From contig NZ_JALDWJ010000007.1 in the NCBI RefSeq assembly GCF_022758295.1, positions 148,940 through 212,939 of the forward strand: a DNA stretch of 64,000 bases, written 5' to 3'. Below are positions 14,846-41,136 of the stretch, in pieces. The notes beneath the pieces were generated by a model. It ran no database searches, was not told where the DNA came from, and saw only the letters and a program-made list of their open reading frames with translations. Position 1 is the first letter of the stretch. The number at the start of each line of letters is the position of its first letter. Source of the stretch: Lysobacter sp. CFH 32150. Its GTDB lineage: Bacteria > Pseudomonadota > Gammaproteobacteria > Xanthomonadales > Xanthomonadaceae. The position numbers and the translations under genes were made by a program.

Positions 14846-16335
<1,490 letters not shown>

Positions 16336-16347
16336 GAGTGGTTAGGT

Positions 16348-22013: not shown

Positions 22014-23789
22014 TCAGCCCTTCTTCCTGGGCACGTACAGGTCGGTGATCGTGCCTTCGTAGACCTCGGCCGCCATGCCGACGGATTCGCTCAACGTCGG
22101 ATGCGGATGGATGGTGTGGCCGATGTCGGCGGCTTCGGCGCCCATCTCGATCGCGAGCCCGATTTCACTGATCAGGTCGCCGGCATGCGGGCCGACGATG
22201 CCACCACCGATCACGCGATGCGTGGCTTCGTCGAAGATCAACTTGGTGAAACCCTCGGTGCGCCCGATGCCGATCGCGCGGCCACTCGCCGCCCACGGGA
22301 ACTTGCCTACGCCGTAGTGCAGGCCTTTGGCCTTCGCCTCGGTTTCGGTGACACCAACCCATGCGATCTCCGGATCGGTGAATGCGACCGACGGAACTAC
22401 CCGCGCAACCCATTCGCGCTTCTGACCAGCCGCGACTTCGGCCGCGAGATGGCCTTCATGCGTTGCCTTGTGCGCGAGCATCGGCTGTCCGACCAGATCG
22501 CCGATCGCGAAGATGTGCGGCACGTTGGTGCGCATCTGCCGGTTCACCGGGATCAGGCCGCGCTCGGTCACGTTGACGCCAGCCTTATCGGCGGCGAGCT
22601 TGCCACCGTTCGCGGCACGACCAACTGCGACCAGCACGCGGTCGAACAATTTCGTTTCTGGAATGCTGGCACCGTCGAAAGCGACGCTGATGCCATCCTT
22701 CTGCGCCTTGGCTTCGACGACCTTGGTTTTCAGGTGGATCGCGACGCCCTGCTTCTTCAGGCGATCGGCGAGCGGCTTGACCAGGTCGAGGTCGGCGCCG
22801 GGCATCAGCTGATCCATCAATTCGACGACGGTCACTGCACTGCCGAGTGCGCGGAACACCGTCGCCATCTCCAAACCGATGATGCCACCGCCGACGACGA
22901 GCAGCTTGTTCGGAATCTCGGCGAGCTCAAGCGCGTCGGTGGAATCCATCACGCGCGCATCGTCCCAGGGGAAGCCCGGCAACTTCACCGGCTGGCTGCC
23001 GGCGGCGATGATGCATTGCTCGAAACGCAGCAGTTTCTTCCCGTCGGCGCCGTCGATCTCGATTTCATTCGCCGACACGAACTGCGCCACACCCGTCGCC
23101 ACGCGCACCTTGCGCTGCTTGGCCATGCCGGTCAGGCCCTTGGTCAGCTGGCCGACGACCTTGCCCTTGTAGTCGCGCAACTTGTCGAGCGTGATCTTCG
23201 GTTTGCCGAAGTCGACACCGTAGTCGCTGGCGTGCGCGGCTTCATCGATCACCGCAGCGGCATGCAGCAACGCCTTCGACGGAATGCAGCCGACGTTGAG
23301 ACAGACGCCGCCGAGTTGCGGGAAGCGCTCGACCAGTACCGTGTCGAGACCGAGGTCGGCCGCACGGAACGCGGCGCTGTAACCACCCGGACCGGCGCCG
23401 ATCACGACGATGCGGCATTCGATATCGGCCTTGCGGCCGCTGGCTGACGCAGCCTTGGGCGTGGGCGCTGCGGGTTGTGCGGCAGGCGGCGCAGCGGGTG
23501 TCGGCGCTGCAGGCTTCGGTTCGGCCTTTGCCACAGGCGCCACGCCCGCATCCACGCTTTCGACGATCGCCACGACGCTGCCTTCCGACAGCTTGTCGCC
23601 GACCTTGACCTTCAATTCCTTGACCACGCCCGCCACCGACGACGGCACTTCCATCGTCGCCTTGTCCGATTCCAGCGTGACCAGGCCCTGGTCCTTCGCC
23701 ACGGTGTCGCCGACCGCGACCAGTACTTCGATCACTGGCACATCGTCGTAGCCACCGATATCGGGAACCTTGACTTCGATCATGGGCAT
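22014..23789 (-). CDS. lpdA: Dihydrolipoyl dehydrogenase (E3) with an N-terminal lipoyl domain.
   Basis: Lipoyl motif [11 protein letters not shown]; FAD and disulfide motif [13 protein letters not shown]; C-terminal HAHPTLSE. Start reset to MPMIEVKV. The longer ORF N-terminus is Pro/Arg-rich and implausible. Confidence 0.9.
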
Positions 23790-23814: not shown

Positions 23815-24564
23815 TTAGGGCTTGGGCGGGTTGGCGGTTTGGGACGACACGGTGTCCTTGGGTGCGTCCGGATTGGTCCAGTCGTCACCCCAGTCGAGAT
23901 CCTTGGCAACAGTGGGGAAATCGGCCGCGAGCGTTGCCGACAATTCGTCGGTGAGCGTTTGCAGCTGCTCCCAACGGCGCTCGCGCTTTCCCGCGCGCTC
24001 GTCGCTGGCTTCGATCAACAGCTCGACCTGCTCGCGCATCTTCGCGAAGGCGCCGCATCGCGGCGGCGGACCACTCGCGCGCAGGCTGCCGATCGCGAAT
24101 GTCCAGGCTTCGGTGTCGTCGAACATCGCGGGCGCGCCTACCGGCGAGGCGACCGACAGCGCGCGATACCAGACATCCAGCAATTCCGTCGCCACGGCGG
24201 CCGGGATCGGCACATCGTTGATCTCCGGTTCCTGCTCGACCCGCAACACCAGGTTGTCGCCTTTCCAGTAGCGCACGCGCTTGTCGGCTTCTACATAGCG
24301 CAGCGTCCAGTCATCGCCACTGGCGATGCCCGCGGCGCTCGGAATCAGCATGAGCCCGCTTTCGTTGTCTTTTTCCGGCAGGCGCGTGAGCGAGAGCGCC
24401 GGCGGCTCGGTGAGTCCGGCCGAGAACAACTGCTCCACGGCCGCGCCCCAGTTCTGCCCCGCCACTGGCCACCCACGGCCCAGCGTGTTGGCGCAGGAGC
24501 CCTTTTGCGCGCTGGCCAGCGGGGCCGCCAGCAATGCCACGATCAACAACAAAACCCGTCTCAT
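23815..24564 (-). CDS. Hypothetical secreted protein (249 aa) with an N-terminal signal peptide.
   Basis: [20 protein letters not shown] has Sec-signal character. No recognisable catalytic motif. Confidence 0.55.
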
Positions 24565-24576
24565 CTCAACATCACC

Positions 24577-24702
24577 TTAGAGCAGTACGCGGCGCATATC
24601 CGCGAGGAGCTGCGCAAGATACGCGGTGAATCGCGCCGCCGCTGCGCCGTCGATCACACGGTGGTCGTAGCTCAGCGACAGCGGCAGGATCAGGCATGCC
24701 AT
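24577..24702 (-). pseudogene. Orphan 3' fragment of aceF: a 41-codon [44 protein letters not shown], duplicating the E2 C-terminus.
   Basis: Its protein matches the C-terminus of the intact aceF at 25599 almost exactly (one G/A substitution). Nucleotides 24604-24695 match 25626-25717 at 91/92. Confidence 0.6.
24604..24695. repeat. Direct repeat copy B (92 bp). It matches copy A at 25626-25717 with one mismatch and flanks the lepB-like insertion.
   Basis: Read by direct alignment: gaggagctgcgcaagatacgcggtgaa[t/a]cgcgccgccgctgcgccgtcgatcacacggtggtcgtagctcagcgacagcggcaggatcaggc. Confidence 0.8.
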
Positions 24703-24711
24703 GGGGCGTCC

Positions 24712-25602
24712 TTAACGTGCATGCGCGGCGGACAGCGAGCCGATCCGCGCAGTTTCGATGGTGTGCGTGATAGGGGAATACGAGAACCAGATGGCTTTCA
24801 CCTTGCCGCGCAAGGCTGAGACAGGGACAGGTCCCTGGAATCGACTGTCTGCGGCATTGAGGCGGTTGTCGCCCATCAAGTAAACCTCGTCGGACCCGAG
24901 TTTCGCGGAGGGAAACGGAATTGCTTCGACAGGAATCGGATTGCCTTCAATTTGGATGTAGGGCTCATCGAGGACGTTGCCATCGATGGCGGCGCGGTTG
25001 TCGCGCGTCACGATCGTCTCGCCGGGCAGGCCGATGATGCGCGCAATCCACATCTGTTCTGGATGTTCCGCGGGCACGTAAGTCACGATCTCGCCGCGAC
25101 GCAACGCAGTCCGCTCACCGGAACGCGCGTCGACGGTAACGAAGTCGCCTAGTCGCAGCGTTGGCTGCATGCTGGTCGATGGGATTCGATACGTTTCGTA
25201 GCCGAACACTTCCCCGCGATGCCTGACAAACCAGTCCGCGAAAAGCCAGTTGACCAGGACCACGCTGGCGATCGCCAGCCAGACATAGTGGTACCAGCGG
25301 TTGTACCAACGCGGCGGCGTGCCAACGGGCATCGCGCGCGCGAAACGGAACGCGAGCACCAGGGCGGCGATGGCCGCCAAGATCAGGAGCGCCAGAAGCC
25401 CGTAATACCCCAACAGCGATGCCGGCAGGCCGAGCCGACCACCCACCAGCATCAGCAACGGTGCGATCGCCACGAACACAAAGCCCCACGCCATCCTCCG
25501 CACGTAGGCGAAGCCGACCACGGGCAGGAAGAACGTCAGCAGCAGCGCCAGTGCTCCGCTGCGGCGCGAGAGCCCCCCAGGACTTGCGACCGCTTCGTTC
25601 AC
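24712..25602 (-). CDS. Signal peptidase I (S26 family) homologue. The catalytic serine box is present, but the general-base lysine is replaced by alanine.
   Basis: S26 boxes IPSTSMQPTL, RRGEIVTYVP, ARIIGLPGE and GDNRLNAADSRFQGPVPV. The position equivalent to E. coli K145 / B. subtilis K83 (YVKRIIGLPGD) reads WIARIIGLPGE. The GTG start overlaps the aceF stop (GTGA). Only the 3' third of the 786-aa track ORF 24712..27072 is real. Confidence 0.75.
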   Translation of the reverse strand: MNEAVASPGGLSRRSGALALLLTFFLPVVGFAYVRRMAWGFVFVAIAPLLMLVGGRLGLPASLLGYYGLLALLILAAIAALVLAFRFARAMPVGTPPRWYNRWYHYVWLAIASVVLVNWLFADWFVRHRGEVFGYETYRIPSTSMQPTLRLGDFVTVDARSGERTALRRGEIVTYVPAEHPEQMWIARIIGLPGETIVTRDNRAAIDGNVLDEPYIQIEGNPIPVEAIPFPSAKLGSDEVYLMGDNRLNAADSRFQGPVPVSALRGKVKAIWFSYSPITHTIETARIGSLSAAHAR

Positions 25603-27008
25603 AACAACACCCGGCGCATGTCGCCGAGGAGCTGCGCAAGATACGCGGTGAAACGCGCCGCCGCTGCGCCGTCGATCACACGGTGGTCGTAGCTCAGCGA
25701 CAGCGGCAGGATCAGGCGCGGGGCGAACTGCTTGCCATCCCACACCGGGCGGATGGCCGACTTCGATACGCCGAGGATGGCGACTTCGGGCGCATTGACG
25801 ATCGGCGTGAACTTGGTGCCGCCGATACCGCCGAGCGAGCTGATCGAGAAGCAGCCGCCGCTCATCTCCGCCGGGCCCAGCTTGCCTTCGCGCGCCTTGG
25901 CGGCGAGCTCGCCGGTTTCCCTGGCGATCTCGATCACACCCTTCTGGTCTACGTCGCGCACCACGGGCACGACCAGGCCATTCGGCGTGTCGGCGGCGAA
26001 GCCGATATGGAAGTACTTCTTCAGCGTGAGGTTCTCGCCGCTGGCGTCGAGCGATGCGTTGAAGTTCGGGAATTTCTGCAGCGCGGCGACGGACGCCTTC
26101 ATCAGGAAGGCGAGCATGGTGAGCTTGATGCCCGCCTTTTCGTTTTCCTTGTTGAGGGCGACCCGCAGTGATTCCAGTTCGGTGATGTCGGCATCGTCGT
26201 GCTGGGTGACGTGCGGGATCATCGCCCAGTTGCGCGCAAGGTTGGCGCCGCTGAGTTTCTGGATGCGCGTGAGCGGTTTGGTTTCGATCGGGCCGAACTT
26301 GGCGAAGTCGACCTTGGGCCACGGCAGCAGGTTCAACCCACCACCACCCGCCACCGGCGCAGCGCCGGCAACCACGCCACTGGCCAGTGCATCCTTGACG
26401 AAGCGCTGCACGTCTTCCTTGCCGATGCGACCGCCGCGCTCGCTGCCCTTGACCTGGGCGAGATCGACGCCGAGTTCGCGCGCGAACATGCGCACGGCGG
26501 GACTGGCGTAAGGCACTTTGTCTGGCAAGAGTTCGTCGGCGGTGAACGCGATGGGCGGCGTACGCGGCGGTGCGGCTTCGGGATCGACACCGGGCTTGCC
26601 GTCGAGCGTGGTGGGCGCCTCGATGGAGCGCTGCGCCAGTTTGTCGGGTTGCGCCGCGACGATGGCCGGCTCGACCTTCGCACCGGTTTCCGCAGTTGCT
26701 GTCGTCGCCTGCGGCGCCACTGGTTCCGCCCGTTGCGGGGCTGCCGGCTTGGCTTCGGCAGCGGCCGCGCTGGATTCGATCACTGCGACCACGCTGCCTT
26801 CCGACAACTTGTCGCCGACCTTGACCTTCAATTCCTTGATCACGCCCGCGAACGGCGCCGGCACTTCCATCGTCGCCTTGTCCGACTCCAGCGTGACCAG
26901 GCCCTGGTCCTGCTGCACCGTGTCGCCGACCGCGACCAGCAGTTCGATCACAGGCACGTCGTCGTAGCCGCCGATGTCGGGGACGCGCGCTTCCTTGAGT
27001 TCTGCCAT
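25599..27008 (-). CDS. aceF: Dihydrolipoamide acetyltransferase (PDH E2) with a single lipoyl domain.
   Basis: Lipoyl motif [11 protein letters not shown], an E3-binding domain, and the catalytic motif [12 protein letters not shown]. Start reset to MAELKEARVPDIGG. Confidence 0.9.
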   Translation of the reverse strand: MAELKEARVPDIGGYDDVPVIELLVAVGDTVQQDQGLVTLESDKATMEVPAPFAGVIKELKVKVGDKLSEGSVVAVIESSAAAAEAKPAAPQRAEPVAPQATTATAETGAKVEPAIVAAQPDKLAQRSIEAPTTLDGKPGVDPEAAPPRTPPIAFTADELLPDKVPYASPAVRMFARELGVDLAQVKGSERGGRIGKEDVQRFVKDALASGVVAGAAPVAGGGGLNLLPWPKVDFAKFGPIETKPLTRIQKLSGANLARNWAMIPHVTQHDDADITELESLRVALNKENEKAGIKLTMLAFLMKASVAALQKFPNFNASLDASGENLTLKKYFHIGFAADTPNGLVVPVVRDVDQKGVIEIARETGELAAKAREGKLGPAEMSGGCFSISSLGGIGGTKFTPIVNAPEVAILGVSKSAIRPVWDGKQFAPRLILPLSLSYDHRVIDGAAAARFTAYLAQLLGDMRRVLL

Positions 27009-37001: not shown

Positions 37002-37120
37002 GAGCGACGTAAGTCGCGAGCTTTCGGTCGCTGAAGCAATCGCGACTTACGTCGCTCCCACAAGGGGCGAGCTTTTCGGTGGTCGAAGCAGTCGCGACTT
37101 ACGTCGCTCCCACAGGGGTG
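36994..37120. repeat. Two REP family B copies (gtaggagcgacgtaagtcgcga...tcgcgacttacgtcgctcccaca, twice).
   Basis: Read directly. The second copy overlaps the 3' end of rsuA. Confidence 0.7.
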
Positions 37121-40374: not shown

Positions 40375-40669
40375 CGCAACGCCGCACCAGGGCCTGTTAA
40401 CGCTATCCGAGCAGGTCGCGCCGGGCCTGACGGCGTGCGAGGCAAGGAAGAGCGAGGGCGCGTATGTCGATACGCAACCGAGTGATGACGCGGCATCGCG
40501 CGTCCTCAGGCCCGGCCCTCCGGGTTGCTCCTCAGTGGCCGCCAGCCGGCGCCGCGCGCCTTGTCCTTGCAGCAAGCAAGGCGCTGCGGCACGCAACACC
40601 ACCTGGCAGCCACTGAGGAGCAACGCGACCTGCTCGGATAGCGTTAACAGGCCCTGGTGCGGCGTTGCG
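40375..40669. mobile_element. MITE-like element copy 2. The core (40390-40655) is bounded by GGGCCTGTTAACGCTATCCGAGCAGGTCGCG TIRs, extended to 46-bp inverted repeats.
   Basis: TIRs read directly. The internal region is about 80% identical to copy 1 (inverted) and includes a long hairpin with compensatory changes. Confidence 0.6.
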
Positions 40670-40744
40670 TCGCTAACACCGGCTTTATGAAATCGCAACA
40701 TCGTTGGCGTCACCATGCTCGCGAACCCACCCTGGAGCAAAGCG

Positions 40745-41011
40745 ATGCGAGCACTCTTCGTCGGCGGCATGGTGGACAACAGCGAACTGGATCTCGACGC
40801 AGCCCAGCCGCCTGCGCATTACCCCGAAAACACTGGCGCCGGCCGGCCGCGCTACCGGCTGCACCACATCGGTGAACACAATAGCGATGGCGAGATCGCC
40901 TACGTGGTCTATGCCGCACCGGAGCTGGCCGATTACGAGGTCGAGCGCATTGCCAGCGAGCGCGGCTATCCGCGCCGTTTTGACGCCACCCCCGCGCTCG
41001 TGACCAGCTAG
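40745..41011 (+). CDS. Hypothetical protein (about 88 aa) lying between two MITE copies. Its TAG stop is the first three bases of MITE copy 3.
   Basis: ORF with GC3 bias; MRALFVGGMVDNSELDL.... No homologue recognised. Confidence 0.35.
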   Translation: MRALFVGGMVDNSELDLDAAQPPAHYPENTGAGRPRYRLHHIGEHNSDGEIAYVVYAAPELADYEVERIASERGYPRRFDATPALVTS

Positions 41012-41136
41012 GGCCTGTTCACGCTATCCGAGCAGGTCGCGCCGGGCCTGAGGCCGTGCGAGGCAAGGAAGAGCGAGGGCGCGTATGCCGATACGCAACC
41101 GAGCGATGACGCGGCATCACGCGGCATCAGGCCCTA
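41011..41136. mobile_element. MITE-like element copy 3 (truncated). It has the left TIR GGGCCTGTTCACGCTATCCGAGCAGGTCGCG, about 90 bp of internal core, and a short right end caggcccTA.
   Basis: It aligns to copy 2 with an internal deletion between caggccc microhomologies. Its right-end TA(G) is the stop codon of the minus-strand PQQ dehydrogenase gene. Confidence 0.5.

Follow-up and report, generated by a model that had tools for sequence, protein, structure and literature searches.

In E. coli, DNA that shares homology with the chromosome on one side only mostly yields duplications of 109-950 bp of the homologous locus, formed by a single crossover of a circularised molecule, and classical illegitimate joins take place at microhomologies of 3-10 bp (PMC3240628). 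Homology-facilitated illegitimate recombination (HFIR) and the integration of circularised, one-sidedly homologous DNA by a single crossover have been described for Acinetobacter, S. pneumoniae and P. stutzeri, as well as for E. coli conjugation (PMC3240628). The minimal mobile elements of Neisseria, as portrayed in the account that cites Saunders & Snyder 2002 (PMC3787668), are variable cassettes located between conserved flanks and exchanged by homologous recombination. Here we analyse a locus that shares features with these systems, as well as with the integrative elements that duplicate an att site at the 3' ends of tRNA or protein genes. It lies in a 64-kb stretch of DNA from Lysobacter sp. 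CFH 32150 (the window; all coordinates are window positions), the minus strand of which carries, in this order, aceF (encoding E2 of pyruvate dehydrogenase, PDH), a gene for a protein resembling family S26 signal peptidases (the S26-like gene), a 41-codon open reading frame (ORF), hyp249 and lpd (encoding E3). The 1,022-bp unit found at this locus is likely to be the scar of one old recombination, which stacked two alternative versions of the aceF-lpd spacer. In one version (S), aceF is followed, with a 4-nt overlap, by the S26-like gene and then by lpd; in the other (H), hyp249 stands between aceF and lpd.

The window resembles the products of HFIR and of single crossovers in that one border lies in homology and the other at a very short microhomology, with a foreign segment of ~1 kb; its 119-bp duplication falls within the experimental range of 109-950 bp of the single-crossover variant, classical HFIR deleting recipient DNA. 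It departs from them in being natural, old and inherited, with an in-frame junction, a conserved leftover ORF and no donor-like repeat copy. As with the minimal mobile elements, conserved flanks (aceF and lpd) enclose cargo that differs or is missing in close relatives, and mobility genes are absent; unlike those elements, the window stacks two cassettes in tandem through an illegitimate join that keeps a piece of each flank. As in 3'-end integrative elements, the insert stands between direct repeats of the target's 3' end, with the functional gene terminating in sequence brought by the insert and the original end displaced downstream. However, the locus has no integrase, the insert carries the S26-like gene only, the repeat consists of 92-119 nt of coding sequence, and at the right end three codons belong to the adjacent gene of the donor operon. 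The process is of an ordinary, known kind and its footprint is unusually clear. With the two parental operon types, the empty site and another carrier of the junction all recovered, it is a natural example, readable base by base, of operon content reshuffled without mobile-element machinery.

A repeat search matched 24587-24695 with 25609-25717 (109 nt, 95% identity), and the homology continues in register from 25717/24695 to the two stop codons at 25599/24577, that is over 119 nt. Just five families of direct repeats of at least 40 nt are present across the window, so this repeat of the aceF end is no chance match. Its first 92 nt (25717-25626 versus 24695-24604, designated a1 and a1') differ at a single base, T 25653 versus A 24631 (CGT/CGA, synonymous), which agrees with the original prediction made from this DNA. 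The final 27 nt (a2, the tail of the functional aceF, and a2', the leftover tail) differ at eight. The original prediction had taken these tail differences for synonymous divergence of the two copies over their last six codons. They are not all synonymous, since they include GGC (Gly) versus GCG (Ala), and they fall into two types: a2' is identical to the functional aceF tail of the relative L114 (0/27 differences; 1/27 versus L124 and 2/27 versus L125), whereas a2 differs from that of L114 at 9/27 positions and is nearest to the tails of S26-linked aceF genes (2/27 versus L081, 3/27 versus L085). The difference between a2 and a2' is thus that between two parental operon types, from which it was inherited, and not divergence that arose after the duplication. 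The 92-nt copies differ from L114 at 1-2/92 positions (a1 at 2) and from L124 at 5/92, and from each scored locus outside this clade at 10/92 or more; by this measure both are of resident-lineage type. Both also read GCG at 25662/24640, a variant confined to these two copies among the sequences compared (GCA in L114, GCC in L124 and L125), which points to homogenisation within the window's own lineage.

The left border of the S26-containing block, at which resident-type sequence switches to S-type, falls between 25653 and 25624, inside aceF. At the right border, codon 3 of lpd is joined in frame to the aceF codon that specifies residue 38 counted back from the C-terminus. The parental sequences, ATGGCACGC^ACC in S-type lpd and CCGCGC^CTGATC in aceF (carets mark the join), have CGC in common, a microhomology of 2-3 nt; the product is ATGGCA(C/T)GCCTGATC, namely ATGGCACGCCTG in L125 and ATGGCATGCCTG in the window, where the junction reads ATGGCATGC^CTGATCC. 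The TGC of the window is a later change from CGC, the state seen in L125, and the right border itself is an illegitimate join at the CGC/GC microhomology. Immediately past the stop of the window's S26-like gene, 15 nt (GGACGCCCCATGGCA) match L085 without a difference across its S26-lpd spacer and the beginning of lpd, indicating that the block has retained the ribosome site of lpd together with lpd codons 1-3; the motif at 24696-24711 (15/16 nt identical in L085) also occurs in L083, L089, L081 and L125. The 41 codons previously described as an E2 C-terminus are so only in part: 38 are derived from aceF, whereas lpd supplied the initial three (ATG GCA TGC) as well as the AGGA ribosome site. 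The S26-like gene is, as had been stated, the sole gene between the repeat copies, and its GTG start overlaps the aceF TGA as GTGA; the distance of 9 nt that the original prediction gave from its TAA to the duplicated fragment is in fact that to the small ORF's ATG, the repeat being 16 nt away.

No transposase is encoded between the repeats, where the S26-like gene is the sole ORF with homologues or a family match, and no tyrosine or serine recombinase gene is found between or beside them. Terminal inverted repeats are likewise missing from the ends of the unit, and the duplicated stretch measures 92-119 nt, compared with 2-14 bp for the target duplications of insertion sequences. The notion of a precise target duplication is accordingly not supported, one border lying in aceF homology and the other being a microhomology join. 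A scan of JGI metagenome contigs for the junction motif ATGGCAYGCCTGATYCTGCC returned 22 matches, all of them unrelated chance matches.

In the two nearest relatives, L114 (~94% nucleotide identity; synonymous divergence, dS, 0.28) and L124 (~92%; dS 0.33-0.39), aceF is uninterrupted and hyp249 follows after a spacer of 11-12 nt. The expectation that relatives would have aceF directly before the gene starting MRRVLLL (hyp249) is borne out by these two and by 11 of 80 species loci considered below. A second carrier of the junction, L125, was found through a sister ORF (MARLILPL..., P0168) from an exact-sequence look-up of the 41-aa ORF. Its contig reads partial S26-like gene, TAA, GGACGCCCTC, ATGGCACGC^CTGATCC..., hyp249, lpd and the atp operon, with the fusion point as in the window; at ~85% nucleotide identity over S26-hyp249-lpd, it is further off than L114 and L124. 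Between the window and L125, amino acid identity and dS amount to 73% and 0.65 for the S26-like gene, 88% and 0.48 for hyp249, and 94% and 0.52 for lpd. Since the same junction is shared at dS ~0.5-0.65, it is older than the window/L125 split. Carriers (the window and L125) are interleaved with non-carriers (L114 and L124), and the feature is polymorphic, not fixed. The non-carriers could have arisen by loss, through recombination between the 92-nt repeats that exactly restored an uninterrupted aceF-hyp249, or by allele exchange through homologous recombination. Because the leftover is conserved over the window/L125 divergence, the near-identity of the 92-nt copies is a product of homogenisation by recombination or of selection and does not mean that they are young; even an almost perfect repeat can be of old date, and repeat identity is a poor clock where copies can recombine.

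Both parental arrangements exist as separate operons. Eighty species-representative loci from Lysobacterales and Burkholderiales were fetched with aceF and their cargo was typed by tblastn (E<=1e-5): the order aceF-hyp249-lpd was found in 11, the S26-like gene in none of the 80. In all seven contexts with flanking DNA, S26 homologues overlap the aceF stop by 4 nt, and the S26-linked aceF genes of the sampled loci all end in GTGA or ATGA. The S26-like gene is followed by lpd after 10-12 nt (L083, L085, L089 and L090), by an FG-GAP gene and then lpd (L086 and L088) or, in L081, by the decayed remains of an lpd 5' end, then an MscS gene and an lpd of a different type. The remnant, seen as a 41-aa ORF (MARIMVKVLDTDG...) at 2977-3102 of L081, marks another junction, formed by a separate recombination at the S26-lpd border. 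Among 50 Lysobacterales loci, the aceF-lpd gap is shorter than 150 nt in 22 and at least 600 nt long in 24, the cargo being hyp249, MscS channels, FG-GAP proteins, CN-hydrolases or the S26-like gene, and L011 holding hyp249 together with MscS. The gap is a variable-cargo site and fits the definition of a minimal mobile element. The aceF genes of L086 and L088 have a dS of 0.33 and the adjacent S26-like genes a dS of 1.1 (95% and 60% amino acid identity, respectively), and the two genes seem to have had different histories or very different constraints.

In the scenario that we favour, DNA of an S-type relative would have entered an H-type genome, bringing an S block with its native borders, ~27 nt of the S-type aceF end on the left and the lpd ribosome site with three codons on the right. 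Integration may have taken two crossovers, one homologous and the other illegitimate, or only one, with the fragment circularised beforehand; in either case ~119 nt of aceF would be left on both sides, and relative to L114 and L124 the window indeed shows a duplication of 119 nt and no deletion. The 92-nt repeat would then have been held near-identical by recombination, through gene conversion or through excision and re-integration. The S26 block is favoured as the newcomer because the nearest relatives are hyp249-type, the S26-type is rare and the G+C content at third codon positions (GC3) of the S26-like gene is lower. A donor tract in aceF upstream of the repeat was considered and discarded, as mismatches against L114 are evenly spread (35/605) and the divergence is uniform; a simple Campbell model alone was rejected, both repeat copies being resident-type. 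The start points of short Logan contigs, which strain variation is equally able to explain, were not used.

Several points weigh against this scenario. The donor is unsampled, the nearest S26-like protein outside the window/L125 clade being 58% identical. The direction is favoured, not proven, as the entry of an aceF'-hyp249 block into an S-type operon gives the same structure. A plain Campbell insertion or a one-sided replacement predicts one donor-type copy and neither copy is of that type, so that later conversion, a staggered join of two sister chromosomes or template switching must be assumed. Moreover, L114 and L124 are low-coverage (~3x) metagenome contigs, and the L125 contig starts inside the S26-like gene and lacks the upstream aceF end, which leaves concerted evolution to be deduced from one genome.

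The original prediction saw here a recent and precise insertion of the S26-like gene with target duplication; on this view the event would be private to this genome and the identity of the 92-nt copies a sign of youth. The single difference between the copies, the empty site in relatives at ~94% and ~92% identity and the detection of a gene-end duplication in the window only, against 91 other loci scanned, are what such an event would leave. With the identical junction in L125, whose S26-like protein is 73% identical (dS 0.65) and whose flanks have a dS of ~0.5, and with tail differences inherited from two operon types, a recent insertion becomes very improbable; L125 is a relative with the same arrangement, the kind of finding that the prediction itself had named as contrary to it. 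What stands is an insertion-type rearrangement that is not the ancestral synteny of this lineage; what falls is its recency and the divergence of the copies after duplication, and its precision is unsupported. The prediction also held that the locus is no assembly artefact, and here it was right: although a 92-nt repeat can confuse short-k assemblers, nothing specific speaks for a mis-join or a strain mixture, and we consider either extremely improbable, given that no k-mer path could produce a join at which the lpd start and the aceF end have no more than 2-3 nt in common, that the independent metagenome assembly of L125 has the same junction, and that NCBI annotates all three genes on one 331-kb contig (exact protein matches WP_242907319 for the S26-like protein, MCI4568397 for the 41-aa ORF and MCI4568396 for hyp249).

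Two further explanations concern the direction and the mobility of the block. A lineage with aceF-S26-lpd might instead have acquired, from a hyp249-type relative, a block spanning the terminal 119 nt of aceF, hyp249 and the 5' portion of lpd, through homologous recombination in lpd and an illegitimate join at lpd codon 3; either direction would give the same final structure, aceF-S26-lpd is present in related Noviluteimonas/Luteimonas-like genomes, L085 is among the nearest loci by flanking genes (atpB-like, 81%), and the independent junction of L081, downstream of its S26-like gene, sits just within the 5' end of lpd. Such a transfer is nevertheless unlikely, because the two nearest relatives are plain hyp249-type, the hyp249-type is common (11/80) and the S26-type rare (0/80; ~20 clusters in 5.8 billion proteins), and GC3 of the S26-like gene is below that of aceF, hyp249 and lpd. 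Alternatively, the S26-type tail, the S26-like gene, the lpd start and the 92-nt repeat could form a RecA-dependent cassette that loops out through the repeats and re-integrates as a circle into the aceF end of hyp249-type relatives. This would suit a junction found in non-sister lineages with empty sites between them and a window in which both repeat copies are resident-like, and single crossovers of circles giving 109-950-bp duplications have been seen experimentally (PMC3240628). We are rather doubtful of such a cassette, since the S26 divergence between the window and L125 is not below that of the flanks and so shows no trace of a recent exchange between the two, searches of plasmids and phages yielded no copy, and a circle or excision product is not observable in sequence alone. 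The same doubt attaches to its corollary, that one junction spread horizontally and the repeat identity was reset each time. The scar of a single old recombination thus remains our preferred reading, and the features on which it rests are listed in the table below.

Features of the aceF-lpd region of the window, with the evidence for each
Feature	Coordinates	Strand	Evidence or comparison
aceF (PDH E2), complete, 469 aa	25599..27008	-	62-87% identity to aceF of 80 Lysobacterales/Burkholderiales loci
a1, upstream 92-nt repeat copy within functional aceF	25626..25717	-	1 mismatch versus 24604-24695
a2, S26-type aceF tail: final 8 codons and stop, with GTGA overlap	25599..25625	-	tail typing
S26-like (signal peptidase I-like) membrane protein gene, 296 aa	24712..25602	-	Pfam PF10502, TIGR02227, alignment to E. 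coli LepB structures
lpd-derived piece: ribosome site GGACGCCCC and ATGGCAT, corresponding to the lpd start of S26-type operons	24696..24711	-	
41-codon chimeric ORF, lpd codons 1-3 in frame with the last 38 aceF codons	24577..24702	-	NCBI MCI4568397.1
a1', downstream 92-nt repeat copy	24604..24695	-	repeat comparison
a2', original hyp249-type aceF tail	24577..24603	-	0/27 differences versus functional aceF tail of L114
hyp249, 249 aa, secreted or lipoprotein-like, no known family	23815..24564	-	usual aceF neighbour in hyp249-type operons
lpd (E3) with N-terminal lipoyl domain	22014..23789	-	Pfam Biotin_lipoyl, Pyr_redox_2, Pyr_redox_dim

The leftover ORF (24702-24577) is intact and its stop lies 12 nt ahead of the hyp249 ATG (24564), as originally predicted. 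Between the window and L125 it has accumulated six synonymous differences and, at the junction codon, one non-synonymous difference (omega 0.06); across the 38 codons derived from aceF, 6/6 changes are synonymous, for which the neutral chance is ~5e-4 with ~28% of sites being synonymous. In contrast, indels are present in both flanking spacers and the 3' end of the S26-like gene has diverged between the same two sequences, and the lpd remnant of L081 is decayed at the protein level. A gene fragment has here been kept intact, and probably translatable, over substantial divergence, and ribosomes starting from the former lpd site would still terminate just before hyp249. Conservation of a1' could come from gene conversion by the functional aceF; a2' is without an identical partner in the genome, and gene conversion therefore cannot account for its conservation. 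Instead, a2' may be under constraint because translation of hyp249 initiates in this region, or recombination with hyp249-type strains may renew it. The chimeric ORF includes the DHRxxDG active-site motif of E2 and the C-terminal segment. It is conceivable, if not very probable, that it would act as a selected, translated micro-protein or as an obligatory translational relay to hyp249/lpd instead of decaying as a remnant, the fast-evolving S26-like protein being a non-proteolytic membrane partner of the PDH operon.

The S26-like protein matches the Pfam family Peptidase_S26 (PF10502; E=1.8e-28, 100 bits against a cut-off of 22.9) and TIGR02227 (99.9 bits, cut-off 47). Type I signal peptidases use a catalytic dyad of serine and lysine (Ser90 and Lys145 in the numbering of E. 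coli LepB). Like LepB (family S26A), the protein possesses the boxes SM-PT, GLPGE and GDNR--S-DSR and a membrane anchor before the catalytic domain, and it scores above the TIGR02227 cut-off; unlike LepB, it has an extra N-terminal domain, its gene is coupled to aceF in the sampled contexts and, in the alignment to LepB structures, the position of the general-base lysine is occupied by Ala187 (Ala also in L125), the serine being kept as Ser144. Across a family alignment (n=12), the Ser column holds S, N or A and the Lys column K or A, with both residues present in 2/12. A ratio of non-synonymous to synonymous divergence (dN/dS) of 0.2-0.3 indicates that the protein is under selection; judging from its residues, it is probably non-proteolytic and no canonical peptidase. 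As the alignment to LepB settles both the fold and the lysine question, no fold search was made with the structure model (predicted local distance difference test, pLDDT, 73.6).

Full-length homologues of 46-59% identity form ~20 clusters among 5.8 billion proteins. The family is distinguished by its ~125-aa extra N-terminal multi-helix domain with an invariant WYNRW-HY motif; an exhaustive search with this domain (residues 1-130) retrieved 21 representatives among 1.84 billion, mostly of similar overall length, and no functional lead. Searches of plasmids and phages with the S26-like protein returned generic S26 domains only, at <=36% identity, and no vector is evident. This is a rare family with a degenerate catalytic dyad, translationally coupled to the PDH E2 gene in the sampled contexts. 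GC3 is 0.76 for the S26-like gene (0.70 in its C-terminal half) versus 0.81-0.84 for aceF, hyp249 and lpd. NCBI holds two models of the protein, of 206 aa (WP_255746825) and 296 aa (WP_242907319), which differ over 25333-25602; the N-terminal 90 residues are kept in homologues, which makes the 296-aa form starting at GTG the better model. Just ahead of this start, within the S26-type aceF tail, lies a terminator-like hairpin (CTCGGCG-ACATG-CGCCGGG with a T-rich run; 25610-25628, minus strand), which could modulate translational coupling. The product of hyp249 has no Pfam or NCBIfam match, and its homologues are found at 96%, 90% and 88% identity.

Other repeats were encountered in the course of the analysis. 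A 210-nt direct repeat (89% identity; 23559-23768 and 26775-26984) corresponds to the lipoyl-domain coding sequences of lpd and aceF; it was rejected as part of the event, being a general property of these operons. Within-genome similarity of the lipoyl domains is 74-94% in 16 of 17 relatives checked, which suggests that the two domains are under concerted evolution. An extra lipoyl-domain-like copy is present between aceF and lpd in L002 (~7466), L018 (~5843) and L035 (~8565), and may stem from duplication of the lpd 5' end or represent a second lipoyl domain. Elsewhere in the window, a 125-nt direct repeat (40389-40513 and 41010-41134; 94% identity, spacing 621) flanks a 98-aa ORF (40715-41011), with a partial inverted copy near 40620-40660, and looks like a repeated intergenic element rather than a gene-end duplication. 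A 45-nt element resembling repetitive extragenic palindromic (REP) sequences occurs at 16294-16338, 37022-37066 and 37074-37118, with 80-100% identity between copies.

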